From assembly GCA_003455995.1 (NCBI GenBank), contig DMPO01000001.1, forward strand, positions 14,945 through 78,944: DNA of 64,000 nt. The letters run 5' to 3'. The notes under the pieces are model-generated. The model had not been told where the DNA came from. It made no database searches and saw nothing but the letters and a program-made list of their open reading frames with translations. Position 1 is the stretch's first letter; every line of letters starts with the position of its first letter. Positions 1-34,534 of this stretch are shown in pieces. The position numbers and the translations under genes are program-made. The DNA is from Candidatus Azambacteria bacterium (GTDB taxonomy: Bacteria; Patescibacteriota; Minisyncoccia; UBA10092).

Positions 1-519
1 TTTGTTTATTTTTTCCAGCAATTTTCCGATTTCTTTAATCGGCTGTATCGTTCCGATTTCGTTGTTGGCGTAAATAACACTAATTAAAATCGTGTTATCT
101 TTTATCGCTTTTTCCAGATCGGCAATTTTTATTAATCCCGTTTTATCAACCGTCAAATAAGTTATCTCGTGTCCGCTTTTTTCCAATTCCTTCAATGGCT
201 CCAATACTGATTCATGTTCTATTTTTGTGGAAATAATATGAAATTTTTGGACATTCTTTACAATTCCCAGAATTGCAAGGTTATTCGCCTCTGTTGCCGA
301 GCCGGTAAAAATAATTTCCGAAAAATCACAATTAAAACATTGCGCGATTGTTTCTCGCGCCTTATCTACCGCCGCTATCGCTTCTTGGCCGAATGAATGA
401 GTGGAAGAAGCGTTGCCGAATTTTTCGCTAAAATACGGCATCATCACCTTTAGCACTTCCCTATCAACCGGCGTCGTTGCGGCAAAATCAAGATAAATCT
501 TGTTGTTTTTCTTAGACAT
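1..519 (-). CDS. Cysteine desulfurase (class V aminotransferase, IscS/NifS-like), N-terminal part; 3' end runs off window
   Basis: Reverse-strand translation from ATG at 517-519 gives MSKKNNKIYLDFAATTPVDREVLKVMMPYFSEKFGNASSTHSFGQEA...FTGSATEANNLAILG, typical of the IscS/NifS N-terminus. It is absent from the ORF track because no stop lies in the window. Confidence 0.75.
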   Translation of the reverse strand, partial: MSKKNNKIYLDFAATTPVDREVLKVMMPYFSEKFGNASSTHSFGQEAIAAVDKARETIAQCFNCDFSEIIFTGSATEANNLAILGIVKNVQKFHIISTKIEHESVLEPLKELEKSGHEITYLTVDKTGLIKIADLEKAIKDNTILISVIYANNEIGTIQPIKEIGKLLEKINK

Positions 520-1288
520 GTTCCAGAGTGGCGTTGCGTTCTTTGACTTCCTGTTCAGCTTTGGCGCGCCAGTCGCGGCCGGCGCACAATTCGTGATAGG
601 CGCAAAAATCACAGACAAAATTTACGGTCCATTTCCCCCGCTCTTTGTCAAAAACCACCGGATCCGACACTGGCGGAAGCTCGTCCATTTTCCAAGAATT
701 ATTCAAAATTTCCAACTGGTCAATGACGGGTTTGATGGCGCTTTCGGAATAATCTACGGGAATAATCAAGCGATTCAAATCGTCTCGGGAAACATAAATC
801 AGCCGACCCTGCAGATTGGAAAAATTTATTTCCGGACAATCCTGATGGCCGTAATTGCGCAACCGCCATAAGTAAAAAAGCGCTTGCAGTTTATGCTGGG
901 GCTGGGGTTGCTTATTCTTCATTTTATATTTGAAACTGAAGGAATTAGTCGATTTTATTTCGTAAAGAATCGGCTTGCCGCCCTCGTATAAAATTAAATC
1001 GACTTTCCCCGACGCTTCATATTCCGGCGCTTCGATTCTCAATTGTTCGGCAATCAAATGCCCCGATTGCTTTACTTTATTAACAATCCACTCTTCGACG
1101 ATCTTACCCACCTCCATGATACCCATTCTCCCCGGCGGGATGATTGATGTCGGAGGCAGTCCTTTGCGGCGATAAAAGGCGCCCCTCAAACAGGAATTCA
1201 GATCCGTCGCCCACCAGCTTTTCTTGGCGTAGGGCTCGCGGACAAAACTTTCGTTTATTATTTTGTCTAAAAAAGTGAAGGAGTCCAT
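512..1288 (-). CDS. Cas4/RecB-family PD-(D/E)xK nuclease with Fe-S cluster cysteines
   Basis: Carries an N-terminal Cys (NSCLRG), motif II D (DLILYEGG), motif III E-x-K (LYEIKST) and a QhxxY-like LQALFY. The C-terminus has Cx2Cx5C (CDFCAYHELC), the AddB/Cas4 4Fe-4S signature. Confidence 0.6.
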   Translation of the reverse strand: MDSFTFLDKIINESFVREPYAKKSWWATDLNSCLRGAFYRRKGLPPTSIIPPGRMGIMEVGKIVEEWIVNKVKQSGHLIAEQLRIEAPEYEASGKVDLILYEGGKPILYEIKSTNSFSFKYKMKNKQPQPQHKLQALFYLWRLRNYGHQDCPEINFSNLQGRLIYVSRDDLNRLIIPVDYSESAIKPVIDQLEILNNSWKMDELPPVSDPVVFDKERGKWTVNFVCDFCAYHELCAGRDWRAKAEQEVKERNATLEHV

Positions 1289-1887
1289 AATATTTTTGTT
1301 TTTCCGCCAGAGGCGGGTCCGCCTCTGGCGGAAAATCTTCGACTTGCGAAGTCAACTTTTAAAATTTTAATATACGGCAGATTGGCGTCGCGGGCAGTGA
1401 ATTTTATTTCTCCATTTTTCAATCCGTATTCATACAGATCGCGCGTCAGCCGCACATCATCGAGGCAGTATTTTTTTAGTTCGTCCATTCTCCCCTGCCG
1501 CCAATAATCGACGGCGATGAGGCCGTTGGCGCTTTTCTTTTTTCCCAAAGTGTTAACACAGAGATCGTCCAAGCTAACCCGATGCCCCATGGCATTGACG
1601 ATTTCAGTCATAATGTCCAAACTGGGAATTTTCATGATGTCCACCGATAGATATTTTTTTAAAACCGGCAAATCAAAACCGTCGGTGTTGAAGCCGATAA
1701 TCAATTCGGTTTTTCTCAACAAATCCTCAAACGCCGGCAATTCTTTTTCCGTGAAAGTCAGGAATTTTTTATCGGCGTAAGAATAAACGCCGGCCACCGA
1801 CAGCAGAAGCTTATGCAGATTTTCTTTTCCGCCGACATCGGAAAATAAATTTTGCGTTTCAATATCCAGAACAATATGATTAGCCAT
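1267..1887 (-). CDS. DnaQ-like 3'-5' exonuclease (DEDD family)
   Basis: The N-terminal LDIETQNLF is an Exo I motif, and the fold pattern is RNase T/DnaQ-like. It overlaps the downstream Cas4-like gene by 22 nt. The 3' tail reads through the GC-rich palindrome at 1303-1336. Confidence 0.6.
   Translation of the reverse strand: MANHIVLDIETQNLFSDVGGKENLHKLLLSVAGVYSYADKKFLTFTEKELPAFEDLLRKTELIIGFNTDGFDLPVLKKYLSVDIMKIPSLDIMTEIVNAMGHRVSLDDLCVNTLGKKKSANGLIAVDYWRQGRMDELKKYCLDDVRLTRDLYEYGLKNGEIKFTARDANLPYIKILKVDFASRRFSARGGPASGGKTKILWTPSLF
1303..1336. repeat. GC-rich palindromic element TTCCGCCAGAGGCGG-GT-CCGCCTCTGGCGGAA (copy 1 of 3)
   Basis: A perfect 15-bp inverted repeat. The 15-mer CCGCCTCTGGCGGAA recurs exactly at 32468-32482 and with 1 mismatch at 15218-15232. 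Confidence 0.6.
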
Positions 1888-1893
1888 AAGATT

Positions 1894-2967
1894 TTATTCT
1901 TCTTCCTCGATTGCCGGTCCTTCGATTTGCAGGGGCTCGATTTCCCCCGCTTTTCCCGTAATTTTTATCACATCTTTGTCGACCTTGCCGAATTCCTTGG
2001 AAGCGCGATTATAGGCATTAACCGTCGTGCCCAAATTATTGCCCAATTTTTTCATATATTCGTCATAGCTCAAAAGATGTTTTTGCAGCATTTCCACATA
2101 TTTGCGGATTTCTTTCGCCGATTCTTCAATTTGCAGCGCCCGCAGACCCTGCATAACGGTTTGCAGATAAGCGAAAAATGATGTCGGCGAAACGATAATG
2201 ACATGCTTTTCCTTAAAAGCGTATTCAATCAAATCGCGCGTGTTAACCTTAATCGCTCCGACCTGGTTAACCAATAAATCGTAATAAATTCCCTCGGCGG
2301 GAATGAACATAAACGCGAAATCCATAGTATTTTCATTCGGTTTGATATATTTAGCCGTTTCGTCAATACGGTTTTTTAAATCGGCTTTAAATTGTTTTTC
2401 CAGTTCTTCTTTCCTATCTTGGTCTTTTTCATTCAAAATCCGGTTGTAATTTTCAAGCGAGAATTTGGAATCGATGGGAATAATTTTATCTTTGACAAAA
2501 ACCACCGCGTCGACAATGTCGCCATTCTTAAATTCGTACTGCATTTGGTAATTTTTCGGCGGCAGAACATTTTTTAAAACATTTTCCAAAAAATATTCAC
2601 CAAGAACGCCGCGATGTTTGGGATTTTTCAAAACATCTTCCAGACCCTGCAATTGGTCGGCGACATTCATCACTTGCTTGTTGGTTTCGTCCAGTTTCGT
2701 CAGCCGTTCGGTAACATCGCGGACAATTTTGGCGCTTTGCGCGAATTGCTGTTGGAACATCTTGGCCGAATCCCCCATTTTATTTTCCACCTGCGAACCG
2801 AAATTCTGCAGGGTTTGGCGCATTTCTTTCAACTGATCCTGAATCATTAAAATCGCTTGATTGTCCTGCGGTTTTTCTCCGGACTTTTTTCGCAACAAAA
2901 AATAAACCAGCATGGCGATTACCCCTGCCATCAAAATTAAAATAGTTAATAAAATTCCCTGATCCAT
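1894..2967 (-). CDS. rmuC: DNA recombination protein RmuC
   Basis: An N-terminal TM helix is followed by a long coiled coil and an RmuC-like C-terminal domain (FMFIPAEGIYYDL...VSPTSFFAYL). ATG at 2965-2967 is preferred; the ORF-track start at 3126 is a non-ATG extension. Confidence 0.8.
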   Translation of the reverse strand: MDQGILLTILILMAGVIAMLVYFLLRKKSGEKPQDNQAILMIQDQLKEMRQTLQNFGSQVENKMGDSAKMFQQQFAQSAKIVRDVTERLTKLDETNKQVMNVADQLQGLEDVLKNPKHRGVLGEYFLENVLKNVLPPKNYQMQYEFKNGDIVDAVVFVKDKIIPIDSKFSLENYNRILNEKDQDRKEELEKQFKADLKNRIDETAKYIKPNENTMDFAFMFIPAEGIYYDLLVNQVGAIKVNTRDLIEYAFKEKHVIIVSPTSFFAYLQTVMQGLRALQIEESAKEIRKYVEMLQKHLLSYDEYMKKLGNNLGTTVNAYNRASKEFGKVDKDVIKITGKAGEIEPLQIEGPAIEEEE

Positions 2968-3029
2968 TAAAATGATTTTATCATGCTTTTTGGATATTTC
3001 ACAATTTGGTGTAAAATAAAACCAAATAC

Positions 3030-3509
3030 ATGTTGCTTGATTCCAAAAGACCGTTTTATTTAATATCCGGAATATTGATTTTGGGTTTGTTGGGTATTGT
3101 TTTTTATTTTCAATATCAAAAAACAATTGATAAAAACTCCATTACTGTTATCACCGGCGATAAGCCCATAAAAATTCAAGTTGAGTTTGTCAAAACTTCT
3201 GAAGAATTGACTCGGGGATTGATGAATCGCGTTTCATTGGACGAAAATTCCGGAATGTTTTTTGTTTTTTCCGACGAAGCAACGCGAAGTTTCTGGATGA
3301 AAAATACTTTAATCCCGCTTGATATAATTTTTATTTCTTCAAATGGCCATATAAACGAAATAACAACTATGAATCCTTGCCAAGAAAATAATATCTGTCA
3401 GCCATATGAATCAAAATTGCCGGCGCAATTCGTTTTGGAAATCAATGCCGACCAAGCCGAAAAACGGAACATATCCCCCGGCGACATCATCCAACTCCCT
3501 CAAAAATAA
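3030..3509 (+). CDS. DUF192-domain protein
   Basis: N-terminal TM anchor; GMFFVF...LDIIFI pattern characteristic of DUF192 (COG1430). Confidence 0.55.
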   Translation: MLLDSKRPFYLISGILILGLLGIVFYFQYQKTIDKNSITVITGDKPIKIQVEFVKTSEELTRGLMNRVSLDENSGMFFVFSDEATRSFWMKNTLIPLDIIFISSNGHINEITTMNPCQENNICQPYESKLPAQFVLEINADQAEKRNISPGDIIQLPQK

Positions 3510-3510
3510 T

Positions 3511-4281
3511 TTACTTTATCAAATAAGTCAGGGTGACGCTTATGGCGATGTCCTGACTGCCGGGTTCGATTTGCGGAGATGATTTTGCTATCGCGCCTCC
3601 CATGCCCATCGCTTCATAAAACATCGGCGGTTCTCCGGCTGAATTTTCGCTAAAACCAATGATGCGGCCAAGACGGAAACCTGCCGTTTTGCCGGTGATT
3701 TTAGCTTTTTCTTTCGCCTGCTTGACCGCTTCCTCGCGCGCTTTATTTCTTAATTCTTCCGGCCTGTCCACCAGCATCGATATGGAATTGATTTGATTGG
3801 CGCCATTGGAAACCGCGCCGTCCAAAATGTCGCCAACTTTGGCAATATCGCGAATCGTAACGGAAAGCGACTGATTCAAAATATAGCCGGCTAGCGTTGA
3901 CTTGCCTTTATTGTAATCGTATTTCGGAGACAGATTATAGTTGTTGGTTTTGATGTCCTCATCTTTTATTCCCTGATTTTTCAGAAATTTAATCACCGAG
4001 TTCATCTTGGAAGAATTCTCGTTCTGGACCGAAATTGAATCTTTGCCCTCAGTCGATAATCCAATCTCAACTTTGGCGGTATCCGGCGCGGCTTTTACCT
4101 TGCCTTCTCCGGAAAAACTGACCGTTTGATAGGCATTCACCGCTCCGCCGTTGCGATAACTGTTTACCGCGCCAACCAATTGATTGAAACCGGCAAAAAC
4201 CAAAAATAGCGTCAAAATGATAAGACCGACGCACACAACTCTTCGTTCGCATTCCGGCAATTTATTATAATCAAAAGCCAT
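3511..4281 (-). CDS. SIMPL/DUF541 (BP26/OMP28-like) periplasmic protein
   Basis: The signal/TM segment and the ...RAKAREEAVKQAKEKA... segment are typical of the SIMPL domain. ATG at 4279-4281 is used; the ORF-track start at 4308 is non-ATG. Confidence 0.55.
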   Translation of the reverse strand: MAFDYNKLPECERRVVCVGLIILTLFLVFAGFNQLVGAVNSYRNGGAVNAYQTVSFSGEGKVKAAPDTAKVEIGLSTEGKDSISVQNENSSKMNSVIKFLKNQGIKDEDIKTNNYNLSPKYDYNKGKSTLAGYILNQSLSVTIRDIAKVGDILDGAVSNGANQINSISMLVDRPEELRNKAREEAVKQAKEKAKITGKTAGFRLGRIIGFSENSAGEPPMFYEAMGMGGAIAKSSPQIEPGSQDIAISVTLTYLIK

Positions 4282-9572: not shown

Positions 9573-9663
9573 AATCCCTCCTTTTATTGTTAAAAAACCG
9601 TTTATGCGCTCAGAAGAATTCTGAGCCTGCGTCCAGGGTTGTTTATTTCACATAATTCCAAAC

Positions 9664-9736
9664 TGCGCCCAGCAGGATTCGAACCTGCGACCGTCTCCTT
9701 AAAAGGGAGCTGCTCTACCGACTGAGCTATGGGCGC
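9664..9736 (-). tRNA. tRNA-Lys (anticodon UUU)
   Basis: Reverse complement GCGCCCATAGCTCAGTCGGTAGAGCAGCTCCCTTTTAAGGAGACGGTCGCAGGTTCGAATCCTGCTGGGCGCA; anticodon loop CTTTTAA. Confidence 0.8.
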
Positions 9737-9829
9737 AGTTTGAAATTATATTTTTATATGAACAACCCGTTAAAAGTAATAACATTACTTTTAACCCATC
9801 TCCAAAAAGGGAGCCATTTCACTACTAAT

Positions 9830-10186
9830 CTATGGGCGCGAATAACTTAATATAATATAAACCCAAAAACCGGCGCATAACAAACTCAAAAATATAATCT
9901 GCCATGTTTTTTTGTTCAATTCTTTTCTTGAAAAACCGGATTTTACCAAAATCCAAAAGATAAACAATGTAAATACAAAAAAAGAAAACGATTTCAAAAA
10001 CACCCCTTGCGAGAAATTAAGACGGGATAAAAATCGCGCTTGATACGGAATATATTCATTTATCAAAGTAGCCGGATATGACGCCAACAATAACACGATT
10101 ATCCTGTTTCGTCCAACGATAAGCCCATACAAAAAGACCGCGGTAAAGAGAAATAAAAGCAATAAAATTTCGTTATTTAAGCTCAT
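9830..10186 (-). CDS. Hypothetical membrane protein
   Basis: Three or four predicted TM helices; overlaps the downstream dnaJ-like gene by 14 nt. Confidence 0.4.
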
Positions 10187-14761: not shown

Positions 14762-16149
14762 AATTCTACAATTTTCTTACCCGTAAAAAAGAAAACTTTA
14801 AGTCCTTGCGCCCCAAGCAAGTTGGTTTTTACGCTTGCGGGCCGACGGTTTACGACTACGCGCACATCGGCAATCTGCGGACTTATATTTTTGAAGACAT
14901 TCTGAAACGAACACTGGAATATAACGGCTATAAAGTTAATCACATAGTAAACATCACCGATGTGGAAGATAAGATTATCCGCGAGTCGCAAAAAACCGGT
15001 AAATCCATCGCCGATTTCGTCAAGCCCTATGAAAAAGCGTTTTTTGAGGACTTGAAAAAATTGAACATAGAAAAAGCGCAAAAATATCCGAAAGCGACGC
15101 GGCATATTAAAGAAATGATAAAAATTATCGAGGCGCTTCTCAAAAAAGGATTGGCTTATGAATCCGACGGTTCAATTTATTTTGATATTTCCAAATTCTC
15201 CGCCAAAGGCGGATCCGCCTCTGTCGGAAAGTACGGAAAATTGAGCGGTCTGAAGAGCCGGGAGCTAAAGGCGGGCGCGCGAGTTGATGTCGATGAATAC
15301 GACAAGGCAAGCGCCGAGGATTTTGTTTTGTGGAAAGCCCCAAAGGAGAGCAATCTCCCTACTTGGAGCGCGTCTTTCGGCGCCGGCCGCCCCGGTTGGC
15401 ACATAGAATGTTCGGCGATGTCCATGAAATATCTGGGCGAAACATTCGATATTCACGCCGGCGCCGTTGATTTGCTGTTCCCCCACCATGAAAATGAAAT
15501 CGCCCAGTCCGAAGGAGCGACCGGCAAACCGTTTGTAAAATATTTTATTGAAGGCGAACATTTGTCGGTTAACGGCGAGAAAATGTCCAAATCCTTGGGC
15601 AATATATTCAATCTCCACGATTTGGAAGCGAAAAAATTCGATCCCCTCGCCCTTCGTTATTTGGCGCTTACCGCCCACTATCGTTCAAAACTGAATTTCA
15701 CTTGGGAGTCGCTCCAATCCGCCCAAAACGCGCTATCTAATTTAAGAGACTTAATTGTTAATCTGAAAAACCAACCGCGTAGCGATGTATTAATACATGA
15801 TAACCAAAAAATCGTTAACCGATTTAAGAAAAAATTCTTGGGCCGCATCAACAACGATATGGAAATGCCGGCCGTCGTGGCGCTTTTATGGGAAGTGGTA
15901 AAATCCGAAAAATTAAGCCCCAAAACAAAATACGATTTGATAATTGATTTTGATAAAGTTTTTGGGTTGAATCTCGGCAAAATAGAAGTTAAAAAAATTC
16001 CGGTGAAAGTTTTGCAATTGGCAAAAGAACGCGAAAAATATCGTCAAGCAAAAAACTTTGCCAAATCCGATATCCTCCGCAAAAAAATAGAATCCCTCGG
16101 CTGGCTCATTGACGACTCCTCCTCCGGCCCGAAAATAAAAAAGAAATAA
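14752..16149 (+). CDS. cysS: Cysteine--tRNA ligase
   Basis: HIGN motif (HIGNLRTY), KMSKS motif and the zinc-binding Cys/His pattern. The GC-rich palindromic element sits in-frame at 15203-15234. Confidence 0.93.
   Translation: MALKFYNFLTRKKENFKSLRPKQVGFYACGPTVYDYAHIGNLRTYIFEDILKRTLEYNGYKVNHIVNITDVEDKIIRESQKTGKSIADFVKPYEKAFFEDLKKLNIEKAQKYPKATRHIKEMIKIIEALLKKGLAYESDGSIYFDISKFSAKGGSASVGKYGKLSGLKSRELKAGARVDVDEYDKASAEDFVLWKAPKESNLPTWSASFGAGRPGWHIECSAMSMKYLGETFDIHAGAVDLLFPHHENEIAQSEGATGKPFVKYFIEGEHLSVNGEKMSKSLGNIFNLHDLEAKKFDPLALRYLALTAHYRSKLNFTWESLQSAQNALSNLRDLIVNLKNQPRSDVLIHDNQKIVNRFKKKFLGRINNDMEMPAVVALLWEVVKSEKLSPKTKYDLIIDFDKVFGLNLGKIEVKKIPVKVLQLAKEREKYRQAKNFAKSDILRKKIESLGWLIDDSSSGPKIKKK
15203..15234. 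repeat. GC-rich palindromic element (copy 2 of 3), in-frame within cysS
   Basis: CTCCGCCAAAGGCGG-AT-CCGCCTCTGTCGGAAA encodes ...SAKGGSASVGK... in cysS; compare ...SARGGPASGGK... at copy 1 in the exonuclease tail. Confidence 0.55.
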
Positions 16150-16177: not shown

Positions 16178-16531
16178 CTAAAAACCATTTCTACCGAAAA
16201 TTAATTTAACTCCATTAAATAAACACATCAAATGCGAATGATTAATGCTCGAGCCGCAATAGTGTATGGGATTTTTAATTAAAGCACCTCTGATTCTGTC
16301 ATTAAAAATTACAACGTCATTTCGATTTCCAACCACATCGATGTCGTGAACTGTCCAACCTCTCTTGTTAAGGCCGCCAACTATTTCTATGTTCAAATCT
16401 TTAATATGCCATCCCAAATCTTTTTTATAAAGTTTCTCCCATTTTCTATTTAGTAAAAACATAAAAATTCTTTTTCCCAGCAAGTGAGATATCATTTCGC
16501 AAAAGATACATCTTCCTCTCTTTTGTGCCAT
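16178..16531 (-). CDS. Minimal nucleotidyltransferase-like protein (Pol beta superfamily), hypothetical
   Basis: GGLNKRGWTVHDIDVV fits the G[GS]-x(9-13)-DxD nucleotidyltransferase motif. A strong SD (AGGAGGTGTAAGG-ATG) precedes it. Confidence 0.35.
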   Translation of the reverse strand: MAQKRGRCIFCEMISHLLGKRIFMFLLNRKWEKLYKKDLGWHIKDLNIEIVGGLNKRGWTVHDIDVVGNRNDVVIFNDRIRGALIKNPIHYCGSSINHSHLMCLFNGVKLIFGRNGF

Positions 16532-16611
16532 CCTTACACCTCCTCTTAAGAACTACAGAAATAATAACGCAAATGCCTATTTAATGTCAAAATAATTTGA
16601 TTTTTGAATTT

Positions 16612-16641
16612 AACCTATTTCAACGATCGTTGAAATAGGTT
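16612..16641. repeat. Perfect 30-bp palindrome AACCTATTTCAACGATCGTTGAAATAGGTT (ACGATCG-centred family, copy 1)
   Basis: Lies immediately 3' of the 16653..17198 gene. Related palindromes occur at 17238-17267 and 40723-40758. Confidence 0.6.
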
Positions 16642-16652
16642 AATAGATGATT

Positions 16653-17198
16653 TTATAATAAATCAAATTTCGATTTGAGCCGGTCATCGTCCGCGATGGT
16701 TTTCGCTTCAATAAAATTTATATATGGCCCAATTTGAAAAATTTCTTCAATAAACTGAATTTCGTTTAAACAAGGGTATGGATGAACGAAAACGCTTTTG
16801 TGCAATTGGCAAAATCCCAATTCTTTCAATTTATCGCGCAATGCGTTGCGGGCCAATTTTTTCTTTTCCGGAATATCAAAAGTCACAATTCGCCAAATAC
16901 CGTCCCATCTCTTGGGTTTTTTAATTTCCAAGTTATCAAGCTCATATATTAGTAGTTTTTTCTTCCCTTTTTCGGTAATGGTAATTTTAGAAATGTTCCC
17001 ATCTTCCCTAAAATCAATCAACCTATCTCGTTTTAGAATTTTTAATGACTTTGTAAAACTATGTTTTTTGGTTTTAAACTTTTTAATCAACGGACTAAAC
17101 ATTATGGCCGAGCCAGGCAATATCATCGCGGTAGTTATAATAAAACCAGCGGCCAAAGCCAACAAAATTTGTTTTCCCACCTCGCCTTTTTTGTTCAT
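16653..17198 (-). CDS. Membrane-anchored wHTH protein with C-terminal Cas2/VapD-fold-like domain (PaaX-like?)
   Basis: N-terminal TM helix, then a winged-helix-like segment (LKILKRDRLIDF...ITEKGKKKL). The C-terminus WRIVTFDIPEKKKLARNALRDKLKELGFCQLHKSVFVHP matches the Cas2 pattern (beta1 h-V-x-[YF]-D-I; helix; Q/HxSVF). Confidence 0.35.
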   Translation of the reverse strand: MNKKGEVGKQILLALAAGFIITTAMILPGSAIMFSPLIKKFKTKKHSFTKSLKILKRDRLIDFREDGNISKITITEKGKKKLLIYELDNLEIKKPKRWDGIWRIVTFDIPEKKKLARNALRDKLKELGFCQLHKSVFVHPYPCLNEIQFIEEIFQIGPYINFIEAKTIADDDRLKSKFDLL

Positions 17199-29016: not shown

Positions 29017-29129
29017 ATATTTAAAATTTTCAATTATTAATTTTCAATTTTCAATAAATGTTTCAATTTTTGAACATTAATACATTAAAAAATTCATTAT
29101 AAATTAGAAATTTGAAATTTGAAATTAAA

Positions 29130-29262
29130 AATTGCGAACTAATGTTCGCAAACAACAGAGCTAAAAGCTTTTGTTCTCGGAGAGACTTACCGCGCCCTTC
29201 GTAGCTTTAGCGAAGAAGGGTATCTTGCTCTCTGTCTGCGAACATTCTCACTCTATCAAAAA
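29130..29262 (-). promoter_or_regulatory. Possible L10 (rplJ) leader structure
   Basis: The long 5' UTR upstream of rplJ has complementary segments (GCGAACTAATGTTCGC; CGAACATTCTCAC...). Its position matches the L10 autoregulatory leader, but the structure is not verified. Confidence 0.25.
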
Positions 29263-29295
29263 TAAAAAGGGGCGTCAAGCCCCTGTTTATTTTTG
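29258..29295. terminator. Bidirectional intrinsic terminator after trmD
   Basis: AAAAATAAAAA-GGGGC-GTCAA-GCCCC-TGTTTATTTTT, symmetric with A/T tracts on both sides. Confidence 0.65.
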
Positions 29296-29997
29296 ATGTT
29301 TTTTGCGCCACTCTTCTATTTTTTTGTGGTTGCCGGAAAGAAGAACTTTAGGAACTGGATATTTTTTATTTTTATATTTAATGACTTCCGGACGGGTATA
29401 TGTCGGAACGCCGACGCCGTATCTTTTTTCTTCAAGCGATTCGTCTTTGCCTAAAACGCCCGAAATGTGGCGCGACACCGCGTCAACGACGATCATTGCC
29501 GGTAACTCTCCTCCCGTTAAAACATAAGGACCGATAGATAATTCGCTAATTTTTAATTTCAAATTTCTAATTATTTTTTTAATTCGTTCGTCTATCCCTT
29601 CGTAGTGACCGGCAATCATTACAATATGTTTATATTTTTTTGCGAAGTCGCTCGCCATTTTAGAATTAAATTGTTTGCCCGAAGCGGAAAAAAGAATTAC
29701 AAGGGGGTTTTTCAACCCCTCTTTTTTTCTCCCCTTATCAGGGGAGAATTTATTGAGCGCTTTTGCAAGCGGTTCGATTTTGAACACCATCCCCGCTCCT
29801 CCGCCGTATGGTTTATCGTCAACCCGCCCGAATGACCATTCGGTCGGGCGGGCTTTCTTATGTTTGTCGTTAGTAAAATCGCGGAGATTGACTATATTTA
29901 TTTTTATTTTCCCGCTTTTCCGCGCGCGTTTAATAATACTCTCGTTTAGATAGGAATCGAAAATTTTCGGAAAAATTGTAATTATGTCGAATTGCAT
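29287..29997 (-). CDS. trmD: tRNA (guanine37-N1)-methyltransferase TrmD
   Basis: SPOUT fold; conserved ...GHYEGIDERI... and GGELPAM motifs. Contains a ~30-aa insertion (KFSPDKGRKKEGLKNP...) relative to typical TrmD. Confidence 0.9.
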   Translation of the reverse strand: MQFDIITIFPKIFDSYLNESIIKRARKSGKIKINIVNLRDFTNDKHKKARPTEWSFGRVDDKPYGGGAGMVFKIEPLAKALNKFSPDKGRKKEGLKNPLVILFSASGKQFNSKMASDFAKKYKHIVMIAGHYEGIDERIKKIIRNLKLKISELSIGPYVLTGGELPAMIVVDAVSRHISGVLGKDESLEEKRYGVGVPTYTRPEVIKYKNKKYPVPKVLLSGNHKKIEEWRKKHQK

Positions 29998-30008
29998 ATT
30001 GCTTAACC

Positions 30009-30038
30009 AAAACCCCTCCGCAACTGCGGAGGGGTTTT
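30009..30038. terminator. Perfect palindromic terminator AAAACCCCTCCGCA-ACT-GCGGAGGGGTTTT downstream of the KH gene
   Basis: A 12-bp GC-rich stem flanked by A4 and T4 runs. Confidence 0.65.
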
Positions 30039-30046
30039 GGAATAGA

Positions 30047-30367
30047 TTATAGTTGTCTTAAATCGTCAACAACTTGATCCATATCTCTTGTCGGTCTTTC
30101 TCTCACGGGACGAGTCGAACCCTCCGGCTCTTCTATCTTCAAATTGACGCGCGCGTTGTGACGGGCACCAATTATGCGAAGCAGAGTTCGAATGGCTTTC
30201 GCGGTGGATCCCTGTCGGCCGATAAGCATTCCCATATCTTCTTGGTTTACTTTAAGGTCTAAAAGGACTCCCATCTCGTCCACCTTGCGGTCAATTTTGA
30301 CATCATCCGGATGATCAACAATCGACTTCACAAGGTACTCAAGAAATTCCTGATCAACATTAGCCAT
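30047..30367 (-). CDS. KH-domain RNA-binding protein (KhpA-like, UPF0109)
   Basis: KH GxxG loop (IGRQGSTAKAIR); lies between rpsP and trmD as in conserved operons. ATG 30365-30367 is used. Confidence 0.75.
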   Translation of the reverse strand: MANVDQEFLEYLVKSIVDHPDDVKIDRKVDEMGVLLDLKVNQEDMGMLIGRQGSTAKAIRTLLRIIGARHNARVNLKIEEPEGSTRPVRERPTRDMDQVVDDLRQL

Positions 30368-30458
30368 TTCTTTGAACAATCTTTTTAAAGTTTTAGTAGG
30401 TCGACCTCCCCAAAGGGGTAGCTACTAATTGTCCGCAATATATCAAAAATTGATATGC

Positions 30459-30487
30459 TTGTCAAACGATTTTTTAATACTTACCAT
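30459..30487 (+). promoter_or_regulatory. Promoter-like TTGTCA-17-TACCAT immediately upstream of repeat copy 1
   Basis: -35 TTGTCA (30459-30464), 17-nt spacer, -10 TACCAT (30482-30487). Confidence 0.35.
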
Positions 30488-30536
30488 GGAGCCAAGAGCC
30501 GGCAAACCGGATGGACGAACCGAGAAACGGTGTTTA
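30484..30536 (+). repeat. 53-bp direct repeat, copy 1 (CCATGGAGCCAAGAGCCGGCAAACCGGATGGACGAACCGAGAAACGGTGTTTA)
   Basis: Matches 52 of 53 nt with 31513-31565. The flanks diverge completely on both sides. Confidence 0.85.
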
Positions 30537-30667
30537 TTGATTTTCCCAGCCCTGTGGACAACTGTTTGCAACTGTCAACGCATTGTGCTAATATAAGAAC
30601 GATCGAAAGATCGAGATTTCTAAAGCTTGGAGGCCTCGCAAGAGGTCTCCTTTGCGTTTTTATTTTG
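30494..30667 (+). ncRNA. Candidate sRNA (~170 nt) whose 5' module is repeat copy 1
   Basis: Predicted TSS is ~7 nt after the -10. Internal CGATC-GAAA-GATCG hairpin. Intrinsic terminator GGAGGCCTC-GCAA-GAGGTCTCC plus TTTGCGTTTTTATTTT (30629-30667), overlapping the 3' end of the convergent NYN gene. Confidence 0.4.
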
Positions 30668-31403
30668 TTATTTCTTTTTTCCAACAAATGAAATCCTTTA
30701 TTTTCTGTATATCAAATATGAATAACCCGCCCTCGACTAATTCGCTTAATTCACTGGAAACCCTTCTCGCAGTGGCAAATAATGTAACTCTTTTATCGTC
30801 TTTTAACAATTGTCTAACGGGATCGGCGAAATCACTATCCCCGCTCCATAAAATAAAATTATCAATATTATTTTTATCATAATCAATTAACATATCCCTT
30901 CCGATTTCAACATCAAAATTACATTTTAAATCTTCAACCGATTTGACGCCTTGATTGTTAAGTTGCTTTAACTGATTGTTTAAAAATTCTATCGTTTCAA
31001 TTGTTAATTTTTGTAATAAAGGTTTTCTAATAAATTCTTTTAAAATATTCGGCGAATTCGGGGGGACACTGGAAACATCTATAGAAAGCCGCATTATTTT
31101 TACAGGTTTTGTCTTAACATCGTATCCGAATCTGCCGATATCTTTTACAAACCGTTCTGATTCAGCGTCTCCTATTAAAGTGCCATTGTAAAATTTGACG
31201 GCGTTGATAGTGTCAAAAGAATCTAAAAATTGTTTTAATCTTTTGGGCTCAATATGCCAACCCAGTTTAACCGACCATGGCTTAACATTCGCATAGTCAA
31301 TATAAATATTTGTTTTTCCGCCAAAAATAATTTCTAATTCTTTAATCCTGTCGGGGTGCTGGTTGGATAATTCTTTTAATCTCGGAGTTTTAGGATTGAA
31401 CAT
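30660..31403 (-). CDS. NYN/LabA-like (DUF88, PIN-like) predicted RNase
   Basis: N-terminal NIYIDYANV and central ILWSGDSDFADPVRQLLKDDKRVTLFA match NYN-domain catalytic motifs. Flanked by the 53-bp direct repeats. Confidence 0.6.
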   Translation of the reverse strand: MFNPKTPRLKELSNQHPDRIKELEIIFGGKTNIYIDYANVKPWSVKLGWHIEPKRLKQFLDSFDTINAVKFYNGTLIGDAESERFVKDIGRFGYDVKTKPVKIMRLSIDVSSVPPNSPNILKEFIRKPLLQKLTIETIEFLNNQLKQLNNQGVKSVEDLKCNFDVEIGRDMLIDYDKNNIDNFILWSGDSDFADPVRQLLKDDKRVTLFATARRVSSELSELVEGGLFIFDIQKIKDFICWKKEITK

Positions 31404-31512
31404 TCATTTTTTAATTAGTTTTATTCGTGGATTATTATAAGATAATCTCAAATTTATGTAAATAAAAAAATCGCTTCACAATCGTGAAATGATTTTTTTT
31501 GCGCGATACTCG

Positions 31513-31565
31513 CCATGGAGCCAAGAGCCGGCAAACCGAATGGACGAACCGAGAAACGGTGTTTA
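31513..31565 (+). repeat. 53-bp direct repeat, copy 2
   Basis: CCATGGAGCCAAGAGCCGGCAAACCGAATGGACGAACCGAGAAACGGTGTTTA, one G/A difference from copy 1. Confidence 0.85.
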
Positions 31566-31929
31566 GAGGAGAGAGATTTATACCCTCTCCGAATAAACGG
31601 GTCGGGCATTTCTAACTCGCACTGTCACCCGATCCGATTCCGTTTACCGACTCGTTGGCTCGATAGCGATTATCTTTTCTGTTTCGTCCTCCGCAACTTG
31701 GAACCATTCCAAGCGCCGGACTTAACAAGAGGATTTATCCTCTTCTGAAACTTCCACTGAATAAGTGAAAATCTCGGAATAAGAGGGAGAGTTGCGTATC
31801 TCCCATGGCTTGCCGAAACCACTCGGCTGCCATACGGCGGGGAACCCTCCCCGCAAACTTCTTGATGGATCGAGTCTAGTCCCATTTTGGGAATCCCTCG
31901 TCAAGCCGTCCATCAACGGCAACGGCAAC
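31566..31929. other. GC-rich, ORF-poor structured non-coding region (strand and class unknown)
   Basis: About 360 nt with many local and long-range complementarities (GAGGAGAGAGATTTATACCCTCTCC; AAACGG...CCGTTT; GGGAATCCC; a GGCAAC x3 run). GC is well above the window average. Only short overlapping ORFs are present, none with a start context. Confidence 0.4.
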
Positions 31930-32235
31930 CTATGAGAGCGCTGCCCCTATAACTTCTATCGCGGCCTTGCGGCCTGCCTCCATCCCCCGGCCATGCGCAA
32001 ACCTGGCCGCATTCTGGCCCTGCCCGGACGGGTCTCTCTTAGACTCTCCGGACTCATCTGCCCACCTGGTATACTCTACATATGCCAGGTAGCACTCCTT
32101 TTTATAGGCCGCATTAGCGGCCTTTTCTGCCACTGCCTTTACAGCAGCGGCCTTTTCTGCCACTGCCTTTACAGCAGCGGCCTTTGCGGCTTCAGTGCCA
32201 AAAATTCGGCACAAAAAATTTACTAATTTTTTCAT
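31930..32235 (-). CDS. Small Ala/Lys-rich protein with internal 10-aa tandem repeat; GC-rich gene
   Basis: Strong SD (GAAGGAGGAAAAA-ATG) at ATG 32233-32235. An exact 30-nt tandem duplication at 32121-32180 encodes AAVKAVAEKA x2. Gene GC is ~55-60% versus ~38% for the window. Confidence 0.5.
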   Translation of the reverse strand: MKKLVNFLCRIFGTEAAKAAAVKAVAEKAAAVKAVAEKAANAAYKKECYLAYVEYTRWADESGESKRDPSGQGQNAARFAHGRGMEAGRKAAIEVIGAALS

Positions 32236-32454
32236 TTTTTCCTCCTTCGCCCCGCCTCCCTTTCGGTGAGGGCTTATGGGCACTCCATACTCTAACCGCT
32301 AGTAAGAAGGTTTCTGGAGACCAGACGGGTTTAGGTTTGCTCTCCAGCTTATCTCATTACTAAAAAAGGCGATTGAGAGCTCTTTACTTACTATACTTAA
32401 TATAGAGAAGAGAGTTTACAATCGCCTTTTTACAAGATTTACGGCTCTTATACG

Positions 32455-32482
32455 CCGCCTGTCCGCCTCTGGCGGAACCCTC
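32455..32482. repeat. GC-rich palindromic element (copy 3 of 3, partial), in the 5' region of the small protein gene
   Basis: CGCCTGTCCGCCTCTGGCGGAACC contains the exact 15-mer CCGCCTCTGGCGGAA. Confidence 0.5.
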
Positions 32483-32559
32483 TCCTCTAAAGAAAGTATT
32501 TAATATTAAAATGTTAATATTCAGCCAACTTTCACCTTACCTTTATAGTATAGCGTATC

Positions 32560-32605
32560 TAACAAACCCTGTCAAGTTTTTTGACGGGTTTTGGCGGGTT
32601 TTGGC
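32560..32605 (-). terminator. Hairpin plus T-tract downstream of rpsP
   Basis: On the minus strand AAAACCCGTCAA-AAAAAC-TTGACAGGG-TTTGTT. Confidence 0.45.
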
Positions 32606-32887
32606 TTAAATAAGCGGTTTTTTGGATGCTTTATGAACCGGTTTTTTGGCGCCGGAAATTATGCCCTGCGAAATAAGCAAATTATGAATTGAATCCGACG
32701 GTTGGGCGCCCTTGCCAATCCAATATAGGATCCTGTCTTTATTCAAACTGACTTTCTTTGTTTTGCGGTCAATGTTGCCGAGCAACTCCAAATACTTCCG
32801 GCGCGGGCCGGCGGTTTTTTGAGTCGCCACGACTCTGAAAGTCGCGGTATGTTTTTTTCCTACTTTCTGCAATTTAATGGTGAGCAT
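32606..32887 (-). CDS. rpsP: 30S ribosomal protein S16
   Basis: MLTIKLQKVGKKHTATFRVV... matches the S16 N-terminus. Confidence 0.9.
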   Translation of the reverse strand: MLTIKLQKVGKKHTATFRVVATQKTAGPRRKYLELLGNIDRKTKKVSLNKDRILYWIGKGAQPSDSIHNLLISQGIISGAKKPVHKASKKPLI

Positions 32888-32899
32888 ATTATTTAAAAC

Positions 32900-34534
32900 T
32901 TACATTTCCGGCATCCCCGACATTCCGCCGCCCATTGGCGGGTTATTTTTTTCCGGCAGATCGGCCACAAATGTTTCGCTGGTCAACAGCATCGAAGCCA
33001 CCGAGACGGCATTCTGCAGGGCGGTTCGGGTAACTTTCAACGGATCTATGATGCCGTCCTTAATCATATCGGCGTATTCTCCCGTGACGGCATTAAAACC
33101 GATTCCTTTTTCTTTGCTCCCCACAACTTGAATCACCTCATTGTCGTCTTTGTTGGAATTTTTGGCAATGGCGCGCATCGGCGCTTCCAGCGCGTTGACA
33201 ACTAAATTGACGCCCTTGGCTTCGTCGCCGAATTCGGTTTCGCCGACCAATTTGGCATTCTTGATTTCCTTAGCCGCTTCAAACAGCGCCACTCCGCCTC
33301 CGGAAACAATCCCCTCCTCAATGGCCGCTTTGGTCGCCGAGACGGCGTCCTCAATCCTGAATTTCTTTTCCTTCATTTCAATTTCGGTGGCCGCGCCGAC
33401 TTTAATGACGGCCACGCCGCCGGCCAGTTTCGCCAGCCGTTCCTGCAGTTTTTCTTTGTCAAAACCGGATTCGGTCTTTTCCATCTGCGACTTGATTTGC
33501 TTGATTCTTTTCTCTATTTCCGCCTTTGAACCGGAACCGCCGACAATGGTGGTATTGTCTTTGGTGGCGACCACTCTTTTGGCGCTGCCCAAGATATCCA
33601 AATCGGCGCTTTCCAATTTCATTCCCTTATCTTCGGAAATAACTTCGCCGCCGACAATGGCCGCGATATCTTCCAACATCTCTTTCCGCCGATCGCCAAA
33701 CCCCGGGGCTTTAATCGCCAGAACATGAAAAACGCCTCTCAATTTATTGACCACCAGAGTCGCCAGCGCTTCGCCTTCAATATCATCGGCGATAATGACC
33801 AGATTTTTATTTCCCGATTTCACCACTTTTTCGAGCAATGGCATTATTTCGGCCAGCGAGGAGATTTTCTTGTCGGTTATTAAAATAGAGGGTTTTTCCA
33901 AAACCGATTCCATCCGCTCGGTGTCGGTTACCATATAAGCGCTGACATAGCCGCGATCAAACTGGAGCCCTTCAACCAATTCATAATCCACGCCCAGAGT
34001 TTGCGCCTCTTCAACGGTTACCACGCCTTCTTTGCCGACTTTATTGATCACCTCGGCAATCAGCGAGCCCATTTCTTCGTCGTTGGCGGAAATGACGGCA
34101 ACATCTTTTATCTTTTCTTTGGTTACCGGTTTGGCATTCTTCTTTAATATATCAGAGACCTTGGACATCGCTTTGTCCATCCCCTTTTTCAAAACCATCG
34201 AGTTGGCGCCTGAATTGATTAAATTGATGCCTTCGGCGATCATCGCCTGCGCCAAAACCACCGCCGTGGTGGTGCCATCGCCGGCGACATCGTTGGTTTT
34301 TGAGGCCGCCTCTTTCACCAGCGAAGCGCCGATATTTTCAAACTTGTCTTTCAATTCAATGTCTTTGGCGATGGTGACACCGTCGTTGGTGATGGTCGGC
34401 GCGCCGTAGCCCTTGTCCAAAACGACATTGCGGCCGCGAGGACCGAGAGTAATTTTTACGGCATTGGCCAATTGGTCAACGCCCCTCTTGATAGCTTCTC
34501 TGGCGGCAACGCCGCTGATTATTTGTTTTGCCAT
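32900..34534 (-). CDS. groL: Chaperonin GroEL
   Basis: AAKQI... N-terminus, ATP-binding GDGTTTA and a C-terminal GGM-like tail ([10 protein letters not shown]). Confidence 0.97.

Follow-up and report, generated by a model that had tools for sequence, protein, structure and literature searches.

A strain-specific 2.15-kb insert between rpsP and the KH-domain gene of a Candidatus Azambacteria genome, with a mobile NYN cassette and a GC-rich structured segment

Two kinds of described elements come close to the locus considered here, a 2.15-kb insert between rpsP and a KH-domain gene in a 64,000-nucleotide stretch of a Candidatus Azambacteria genome (GenBank assembly GCA_003455995.1, contig DMPO01000001.1; the whole stretch is hereafter the window, and positions are counted from its first letter). 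NYN or LabA-like nucleases belong to the PIN-like superfamily (Matelska et al. 2017, PMC5499597). Large GC-rich non-coding RNAs, such as ROOL, GOLLD, OLE and raiA, are known as GC-rich intergenic islands from the GC-rich intergenic region (GC-IGR) approach of the Breaker laboratory (PMC8723152, PMC11109978). The insert holds a gene that resembles the former and a segment that resembles the latter in its general properties.

We suggest that the 2.15 kb probably entered as accessory DNA, at an insertion hot spot specific to the lineage, and would consist of two independently transcribed modules. Module 1 is GC-rich and strongly structured; module 2 is a cassette with an NYN-domain gene. Genomes of the Candidate Phyla Radiation (CPR, Patescibacteria) are small and thought to be streamlined, and the locus gives a clean example of an empty and a filled site within the rpsP-KH-trmD cluster.

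The rpsP-KH junction in the window and in its relatives

The host belongs to the Parcubacteria (Patescibacteria) and has ~41% GC, the window mean being also ~41%. Its closest species representative is a Candidatus Azambacteria metagenome-assembled genome (TrmD 73%, KH 93%). On the minus strand the genes follow in the order groES, groEL (34534-32900), rpsP, an interval of 2.24 kb, the KH gene, trmD and rplJ-rplL. An earlier reading, made from the sequence alone (the sequence-only reading), had placed rpsP and the KH gene ~2.2 kb apart; the gap measures 2,238 nt, with both genes on the minus strand and confirmed by Pfam. The region is laid out as follows.

32606-32887, minus strand: rpsP (S16), Pfam PF00886
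~32575-31464, minus strand: module 1, with promoter, leader, 101-codon open reading frame (ORF), ORF-free RNA and terminator
30558-31468, minus strand: module 2, the NYN cassette, with promoter, NYN ORF and 3' hairpin element
30437-30465, minus strand: native KH promoter, TTGACA-17-TATATT, which marks the right boundary of the insert
30393-30429, minus strand: KH leader hairpin, conserved with relatives
30047-30367 (alternative end 30379), minus strand: KH-domain gene (KhpA-like), Pfam PF13083
29287-29997, minus strand: trmD, Pfam PF01746, directly after the KH gene

A scan of metagenome contigs for S16 gave 47 loci with rpsP at least 74% identical and a KH gene. The distance from rpsP to KH is at most 420 nt in 41 of these 47 metagenomic relatives, with a median of 135 nt, and its bulk is a variable Pro/Glu/Ala-rich C-terminal tail of S16 (up to ~130 nt), whose TGA stop in many relatives lies inside the -35 box of the KH promoter (GCTTGACG). 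In the closest relative (locus L095; GroEL 95%, KH 98%, S16 91%) rpsP leads straight into the KH promoter and there is no insert. Similarity of the window to its relatives ends after AAAAAACCGC in rpsP (~32611) and resumes at the KH -35 box (~30466). Hence, the insert spans ~32611 to ~30466 of the minus strand, that is ~2.15 kb with two modules. It also alters the 3' end of rpsP (32606-32620): the last few codons are replaced, and the protein ends in KKPLI* without the tail of the relatives.

The insert is strain-specific and is known from one population. Assemblies of several independent samples contain the identical sequence, apart only from one copy of a 30-nt unit and two single-nucleotide polymorphisms (SNPs); this rules out an assembly artefact or sequencing frameshifts. 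One long frameshifted gene is likewise ruled out by these identical assemblies and by Pfam, which at E <= 1 matches no ORF fragment of the interval on either strand. The block is also not carried by the relatives as ordinary genes. Thus, the suggestion that the interval is an acquired module, made in the sequence-only reading, is borne out by the synteny of the relatives and by the mobility of the NYN cassette described below.

In other relatives this junction is filled with other DNA, with at least eight distinct cargoes in total, which makes it an insertion hot spot. The filled sites are listed below by locus.

L098, 594-1430: Apyc1-like (anti-Pycsar) metallo-beta-lactamase-fold protein (PF23023, 1.4e-36) and a small ORF
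L141-143: RHH/CopG protein and an unknown ORF
L139: IS30-type transposase
L134: weakly LysM-like protein
L170: unknown 193-aa protein and a 100-aa ORF (1400-1702) without Pfam match
L133: two small GC-rich ORFs, both preceded by a strong Shine-Dalgarno (SD) sequence (GGAGG at the right distance)
L116 and L112: two further cargoes, truncated by the ends of their contigs

Judged by eye, the 100-aa ORF of L170 resembles an internally truncated reverse transcriptase of the type found in diversity-generating retroelements.

The opposite history, in which the clade had the block from its ancestor and repeated deletion made the junction compact, would fit one observation at L133. This insert alone has the left promoter and the first transcribed bases (TAAGGTGAA) in common with the window, so that part of the left end is older than the species; the two inserts are otherwise unrelated. 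Nevertheless, we consider repeated deletion very improbable. The junction is compact in the large majority of relatives, the closest one included, and there the KH -35 box contains the stop codon of S16; the cargoes are mutually unrelated, and the codon usage and GC of the ORF in module 1 are foreign. Present sampling indicates that the insert-bearing strains are a single derived tip.

Two further features that had been connected with the insert, missing rimM and a GC content far above the rest of the window, are no evidence for an insertion event. The gene rimM is truly absent between KH and trmD, and it is so in essentially all relatives with both genes (80 genome and ~50 metagenome loci). 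Its absence is thus a lineage trait, separate from the insert. High GC (50-57%) is confined to ~31550-32300 within module 1, where the claim holds; the L7/L12 gene (rplL, 57.7%) equals it elsewhere in the window, groEL reaches 50-53%, and the NYN part is AT-rich (30-35% GC against the window mean).

The KH-trmD junction is variable as well, with 1-3.6 kb of extra genes in L121, L123, L131, L132, L137, L145 and L149; judging from N-terminal sequences, these resemble polysaccharide-deacetylase-like and penicillin-binding-protein-like proteins. In L191 (1003-4464) the order is rpsP, KH, an MmeI-like restriction-modification (R-M) system with an NYN homologue, and trmD.

The 5' leader of the KH gene, in the window and in L092-L171, reads AWTAGTAG, then a variable self-complementary hairpin of 0-46 nt, then AGGTCGACCTACTAA, with 28 sequence variants. 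The hairpin sequence varies while its pairing is kept (CCCC/GGGG, CCAATG/CATTGG, CCCCG/CGGGG). The leader has no match in Rfam and may be a cis-regulatory RNA of the KhpA-like gene.

The mobile NYN cassette

Module 2 consists of three parts.

31434-31462, minus strand: NYN promoter, TTTACA-17-TATAAT
30660-31403, minus strand: NYN ORF, Pfam PF01936
30629-30650 and 30600-30613, minus strand: hairpin 1 and hairpin 2, which with the linker between them form a conserved 3' element of ~100 nt

The NYN gene was recognized in the sequence-only reading, and it scores 56.5 bits with PF01936, whose curated cut-off is 24.2 (E = 6e-15); the alignment covers positions 53-134 of a profile of 145. Fifteen homologues of 51-91% identity all keep residues D36, N39, D164, E166, D170, D189 and D191, the SGDSDF motif included. 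We take these residues to form the active site. The protein is a predicted nuclease of the LabA-like, PIN-like superfamily; we infer its expression and the existence of a target. In hairpin 1 of the 3' element, 6 of the 12 pairs have undergone compensatory changes, an A.C mismatch is kept in most homologues, and no U-tract follows on the sense strand.

There are more than 2000 homologues of 65-91% identity, of which essentially all come from metagenomes of Patescibacteria, and the hosts of the cassette range from 34% to 52% GC. At L087/L088 a block 88.5% identical to window 31468-30558 begins and ends at exactly these coordinates. Window 1-3473 and the contig of L088 are syntenic (77-78% nucleotide identity), and the cassette of L088 lies between a PDDEXK gene and an aminotransferase gene, which in the window overlap (~498-523, near 510; ATGTCTAA). 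Thus, this site is filled in the relative and empty in the window, and by this comparison the cassette is demonstrably a mobile unit of ~0.9 kb with promoter, ORF and 3' element. Its higher identity to the L088 copy than that of the flanking-gene orthologues is a further point against an ancestral block. The whole insert of L088 (7600-8915, 1.3 kb) is formed by a 336-nt orphan promoter-to-terminator unit and the NYN cassette. There the TGA stop of the upstream gene lies inside the TTGACA box of the insert, as at the native rpsP/KH junction.

The neighbours of the cassette at other loci are often R-M, toxin or integrase genes.

L173-L182: position between hsdM and hsdS of a type I R-M system
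L091: NgoPII R-M system with Vsr
L183: PemK-like genes
L090: integrase, second NYN gene and type IV secretion system pilins
L189: CYTH and DUF559 genes
L187: DUF192

Judging by this company, the most likely role of the cassette would be that of a defence or addiction-type nuclease rather than one in ribosome biogenesis. Two points weigh against it. Some NYN copies adjoin ordinary genes, and the matches in PADLOC-DB 2.0 are partial (NYN 7e-12 over residues 129-234; HEC-09 3e-8), the defence role being read from the neighbourhood. Nevertheless, a cassette that has a covarying 3' RNA element and moves across the phylum, often by R-M genes, is a reasonable CPR defence or addiction candidate.

A homologue with 51% identity and a recognizable 3' hairpin also lies on a contig classified as viral (L172; IMG/VR IMGVR_UViG_3300025924_000908, 3001-3738).

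Module 1, its transcript and the direct repeats

Module 1 and the repeats that connect it with the cassette comprise the following features.

32547-32575, minus strand: promoter, TTGACA-17-TATACT, 11 of 12 consensus positions
32236-32540, minus strand: structured leader, ~300 nt, fold z = -3.95
31930-32235, minus strand: 101-codon Ala-rich ORF, with AAGGAGG at 32241-32247
31500-31929, minus strand: ORF-free GC-rich segment, ~430 nt, with about seven short hairpins and then one long hairpin
31505-31674, minus strand: the long hairpin, 64 base pairs, whose 3' arm is the direct repeat DR-A
31506-31565, minus strand: DR-A, the 3' arm of the long hairpin
31464-31499, minus strand: intrinsic terminator, a hairpin with 16-nt arms, then T7
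30477-30536, minus strand: DR-B, a copy of that 3' arm only, which abuts the native KH promoter

Folding stability sets module 1 apart from the rest of the window. When 213 non-overlapping 300-nt tiles of the minus strand were folded, the background was z = -0.73 +/- 1.43, and tile 31501-31800 (z = -7.93) was the most extreme of all, beyond the tiles with tRNA-Lys and with the LOOT RNA; all four tiles of module 1 rank within the top 13. The ORF-free structured segment noticed earlier is thereby substantiated: 31500-31935 folds with z = -7.5, and its minus strand is 20 kcal/mol more stable than its plus strand. The long hairpin together with the terminator reaches z = -8.5, its minimum free energy structure making up 17% of the ensemble. 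In the long hairpin alone 8 G-U pairs stand against one A.C mismatch, and the energy is -83.8 kcal/mol on the minus strand against -68.0 kcal/mol on the plus strand. Across the measurements in the 3' region of module 1 the minus-strand fold is better by 16-20 kcal/mol. The excess of G-U pairs and the strand asymmetry point to selection on a minus-strand RNA rather than to neutral decay of a palindrome. Of the SNPs in the population, that at 31627 falls on a predicted bulge of the long hairpin.

Hence, the description of the insert as RNA-centred stands as far as thermodynamics goes (the most extreme z-score and the G-U strand asymmetry). Against it weighs that the structure comes without covariation, as the searched sets hold no homologue to compare, and that any function of module 1 is a guess. 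Searches by blastn and nhmmer of 191 related loci and of phage and plasmid collections gave no DNA homologue of module 1 beyond low-complexity matches to Ala repeats, and three exact-pattern scans of viral contigs gave none either. For Rfam 15, the whole window was compared at the gathering thresholds, and stretches of 3 kb, 0.49 kb and 0.66 kb at E <= 10. No gathering-level match falls in 30000-33000, where the best sub-threshold scores are 12-25 bits against thresholds of 33-90; the ORF-free segment matches no family at E <= 10, and the leader gives sub-threshold matches only. Families without a match in module 1 include RNase P, 6S, tmRNA, ROOL, GOLLD, OLE, HEARO, group I/II introns and riboswitches.

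Several candidates were tried and rejected. AAGUCCGGC (~31715) and GCCGGCUCUU (in DR-A) resemble by eye the strands of helix P4 of RNase P RNA; no model match, even a weak one, was found, the spacing is wrong, and the 3' motif is tied up in firm base pairs of the long hairpin. 6S RNA and tmRNA are ruled out, with no match in Rfam or ARAGORN and a hairpin without a central bubble. Duplication of the leader into the 3' domain, or antisense pairing between them, is ruled out by alignment scores at shuffle level.

The leader holds a terminator-like hairpin with 26-nt arms (32363-32431), then T6. The palindrome seen in the 5' region is the hairpin motif TTCCGCCAGAGGCGGA at 32462-32477. This motif is dispersed, with 6 copies in the window at up to 2 mismatches against 0.02 expected. 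Its sites include 1302-1333, 15198-15229, 663-678 and 32462-32477; two of them are back-to-back inverted pairs that form a 32-nt palindrome. The 14-nt core is sporadic in relatives, where some of its positions lie inside the match to rplJ, so the signal may be partly coding.

Other strong folds among the tiles are 29101-29400 (trmD-rplJ, -4.8), 16501-16800 (-4.4) and 9601-9900 (-6.5); the last holds tRNA-Lys at 9663-9737 and may hold more. The LOOT RNA (RF03000; 45441-45557, minus strand) scores 75.4 bits against a gathering threshold of 46.4 and is the sole non-tRNA match of the window in Rfam.

Whether the 101-codon ORF is translated is a matter of roughly even odds, since the evidence is contradictory. 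On the coding side, the perfect SD sequence reported earlier is present: AAGGAGG lies 5 nt ahead of the ATG at 32235, and the start ATG-AAA-AAA completes a textbook signal. The predicted 101-aa product, which includes the peptide MKKLVNFLCRIFG, has a periodicity of 5 residues (15 nt), and the exact 30-nt tandem duplication, also reported earlier, was found at 32116-32145 and 32146-32175. The 30-nt unit is polymorphic: the independent and otherwise identical assemblies L081-L085 have a single copy, and this sole indel of the population is in frame. A single-sequence AlphaFold2 model of the product is a helical hairpin with a predicted local distance difference test score (pLDDT) of 78.7. The insert of L133 has its two GGAGG-led small ORFs behind the same promoter.

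On the other side, the protein is an orphan. Only itself was found in 5.8 billion clustered and 1.84 billion representative proteins, and there is no profile match in Pfam, NCBIfam, PADLOC or PHROG. Its codon score is -0.09 against 0.094 +/- 0.03 in host genes, ~6 standard deviations off. Shuffles that preserve composition yield an ORF of 101 or more codons in 5.9% of cases (p = 0.059), and the RNA fold across the ORF itself has z = -5.4. The SD sequence is ambiguous as well. In 49 of the 53 ORFs of at least 150 aa in the window, counted from the first ATG, there is no SD-like sequence at -20 to -4, and rpsP, KH and NYN are visibly without one. The AAGGAGG ahead of the small ORF is thus atypical for the host, as is the GGAGG ahead of the ORFs in L133, and AAGGAGG may not signal a start here.

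Two readings of module 1 follow from this balance. It may be a non-coding RNA, large and structured, that takes up just the 3' domain (0.45 kb) or the full 1.07 kb, the ORF being fortuitous; we give this somewhat less than an even chance. The extreme folding of the tiles, the fold across the ORF, the orphan status and foreign codons of its product and the G-U asymmetry speak for it; the start signal, the in-frame indel, the helical model with its periodicity, the ORFs of L133 and the lack of both an Rfam family and covariation speak against it. More specifically, and only tentatively, we propose that module 1 (32540-31464) might be an undescribed large structured RNA of mobile origin, 0.45 kb long or a 1.07-kb dual-function RNA with a 101-aa helical peptide, which would have entered the CPR genome at the hot spot and on whose 3' arm the NYN cassette would have landed afterwards.

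The direct repeats link the two modules. The 53-bp repeats described earlier are confirmed: DR-A and DR-B agree over 53 nt at 98% or 60 nt at 95% (E = 1e-24), or ~77 nt with one 6-nt gap, and the NYN cassette sits exactly between them. The cassette is flanked by repeats, specific to each locus, at L091 (29 nt) and at L183/L186 (19 nt) as well. The simplest reading of the repeats would be duplicative or Campbell-type recombination. Against it weigh the distribution of flanking repeats, present at three of eight independent NYN loci and missing at five, and the lack of a recombinase, transposase or integrase beside the insert in tblastn searches of the whole window with one integrase (tyrosine recombinase) and one IS30 transposase. 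As only three of the eight loci have repeats, duplication is not an obligatory signature of cassette movement.

The cassette differs from an integron cassette in that it has its own promoter, forms no array and has no tyrosine-recombinase homologue in the window by tblastn with one such enzyme (no formal scan for attC cores was made); its flanking repeats derive from the target and vary from locus to locus. The repeats copy the 3' arm of a hairpin, which recalls an island that sits in the 3' end of an RNA gene, but there is no integrase, and no tRNA or tmRNA in the region. A diversity-generating retroelement or retron is ruled out: the insert has no reverse transcriptase ORF, and the mismatches between the repeats (T/C, C/T, G/A) are not adenine-specific.

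The long hairpin and DR-B could also be remnants of a miniature inverted-repeat transposable element or of transposon terminal inverted repeats, the composite being a decayed transposon with NYN as cargo. Three copies of the ~60-nt unit lie within 1.2 kb, one inverted and two direct, and the cassette lies between DR-B and the inverted copy, which is the 5' arm. This origin is nevertheless improbable, since the 64-kb window and the 191 related loci contain no further copy, the search with the IS30 transposase found none in the window, the differences between the arms mainly keep G-U pairing of the RNA, which is unexpected for neutral decay of a palindrome, and such repeats are missing from the cassette copy of L088.

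Module 1 and the NYN gene might instead form one functional system, in which module 1 would be an RNA antitoxin or regulator, as in type III toxin-antitoxin systems, and the 5' arm of the hairpin would pair in trans with DR-B in a read-through transcript from NYN to KH. The layout of RNA, terminator and nuclease gene suits this idea, DR-B is complementary to the 5' arm, the 3' hairpin of NYN without a U-tract makes read-through into DR-B plausible, and L088 likewise combines an orphan promoter-to-terminator unit with the cassette. However, most distinct NYN loci have no RNA-like unit upstream, and at several of them 1-130 nt separate the gene from the one before it. The L088 unit is dissimilar to module 1 (alignment score at shuffle level), the intramolecular hairpin would out-compete pairing in trans, and the tandem RNA repeats typical of ToxI are missing. 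The two modules do not appear to be a functional pair, and we hold such a system to be unlikely.

Returning to acquisition of accessory DNA at a hot spot, which we favour, we suggest that the insert most likely arose in two steps where the KH promoter adjoins the stop codon of S16.

Step 1: A foreign GC-rich promoter-to-terminator unit (module 1, ~1.07 kb) would arrive first. It would give a stable structured transcript of mobile or foreign origin, which may be the mRNA of a small protein with a structured 3' domain or a non-coding RNA.

Step 2: The self-contained NYN cassette would then land directly after the terminator of module 1. Its arrival would duplicate ~60-77 bp of the target, from the 3' arm of the hairpin through the KH -35 region, and so give the flanking direct repeats. 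The same cassette moves between sites and hosts across Patescibacteria, and often lies amid R-M, toxin and integrase genes. Against this order stands the possibility that the whole composite was acquired in one step.

Comparison with known systems

The predicted nuclease is similar to other NYN or LabA-like nucleases in its above-threshold match to Pfam, its invariant residues with SGDSDF, its single domain and its R-M and toxin neighbours, with the C-terminal half alone aligning to the Pfam and PADLOC profiles. However, unlike these, it belongs to a tight Patescibacteria-specific subfamily, 65-91% identical in hosts of 34-52% GC, has a conserved insertion of ~60 residues in the domain, and moves together with a covarying RNA element at the 3' end of its gene.

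Module 1 shares with ROOL, GOLLD, OLE and raiA a GC-rich, ORF-poor composition in an AT-rich genome, an extreme z-score, its own promoter and terminator and a link to mobile DNA. This likeness is in general properties only: module 1 has no match in Rfam 15, occurs in one population and contains a plausibly translated ORF. Its transcript could define a new RNA class if relatives are found; at present it is a curiosity of a single population.

In the order of RNA, terminator and endonuclease-family gene the insert is similar to type III toxin-antitoxin (ToxIN-like) loci. Unlike them, it has no tandem RNA repeats, its sole tandem repeat being inside the ORF; its nuclease is of another family, and most homologous cassettes have no RNA beside them. 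As in tRNA/tmRNA 3'-end (Campbell-type) islands, direct repeats copy the 3' part of a structured RNA and bracket an acquired gene. However, here there is no integrase, the acquired piece is a single 0.9-kb gene, the RNA is another one, and the repeat runs on into the promoter of the neighbouring gene.

The closest likeness in overall arrangement is to hot-spot accessory or defence islands, with conserved core flanks, a site that is mostly empty, unrelated cargo in each strain and atypical composition. The present locus differs from them in lying within the rpsP-KH-trmD cluster of a reduced CPR genome, in inserts of 0.8-3 kb and in having no integrase or tRNA at the site. The orphan RNA matches nothing known; the kind of event is ordinary, namely the arrival of accessory DNA at a hot spot.

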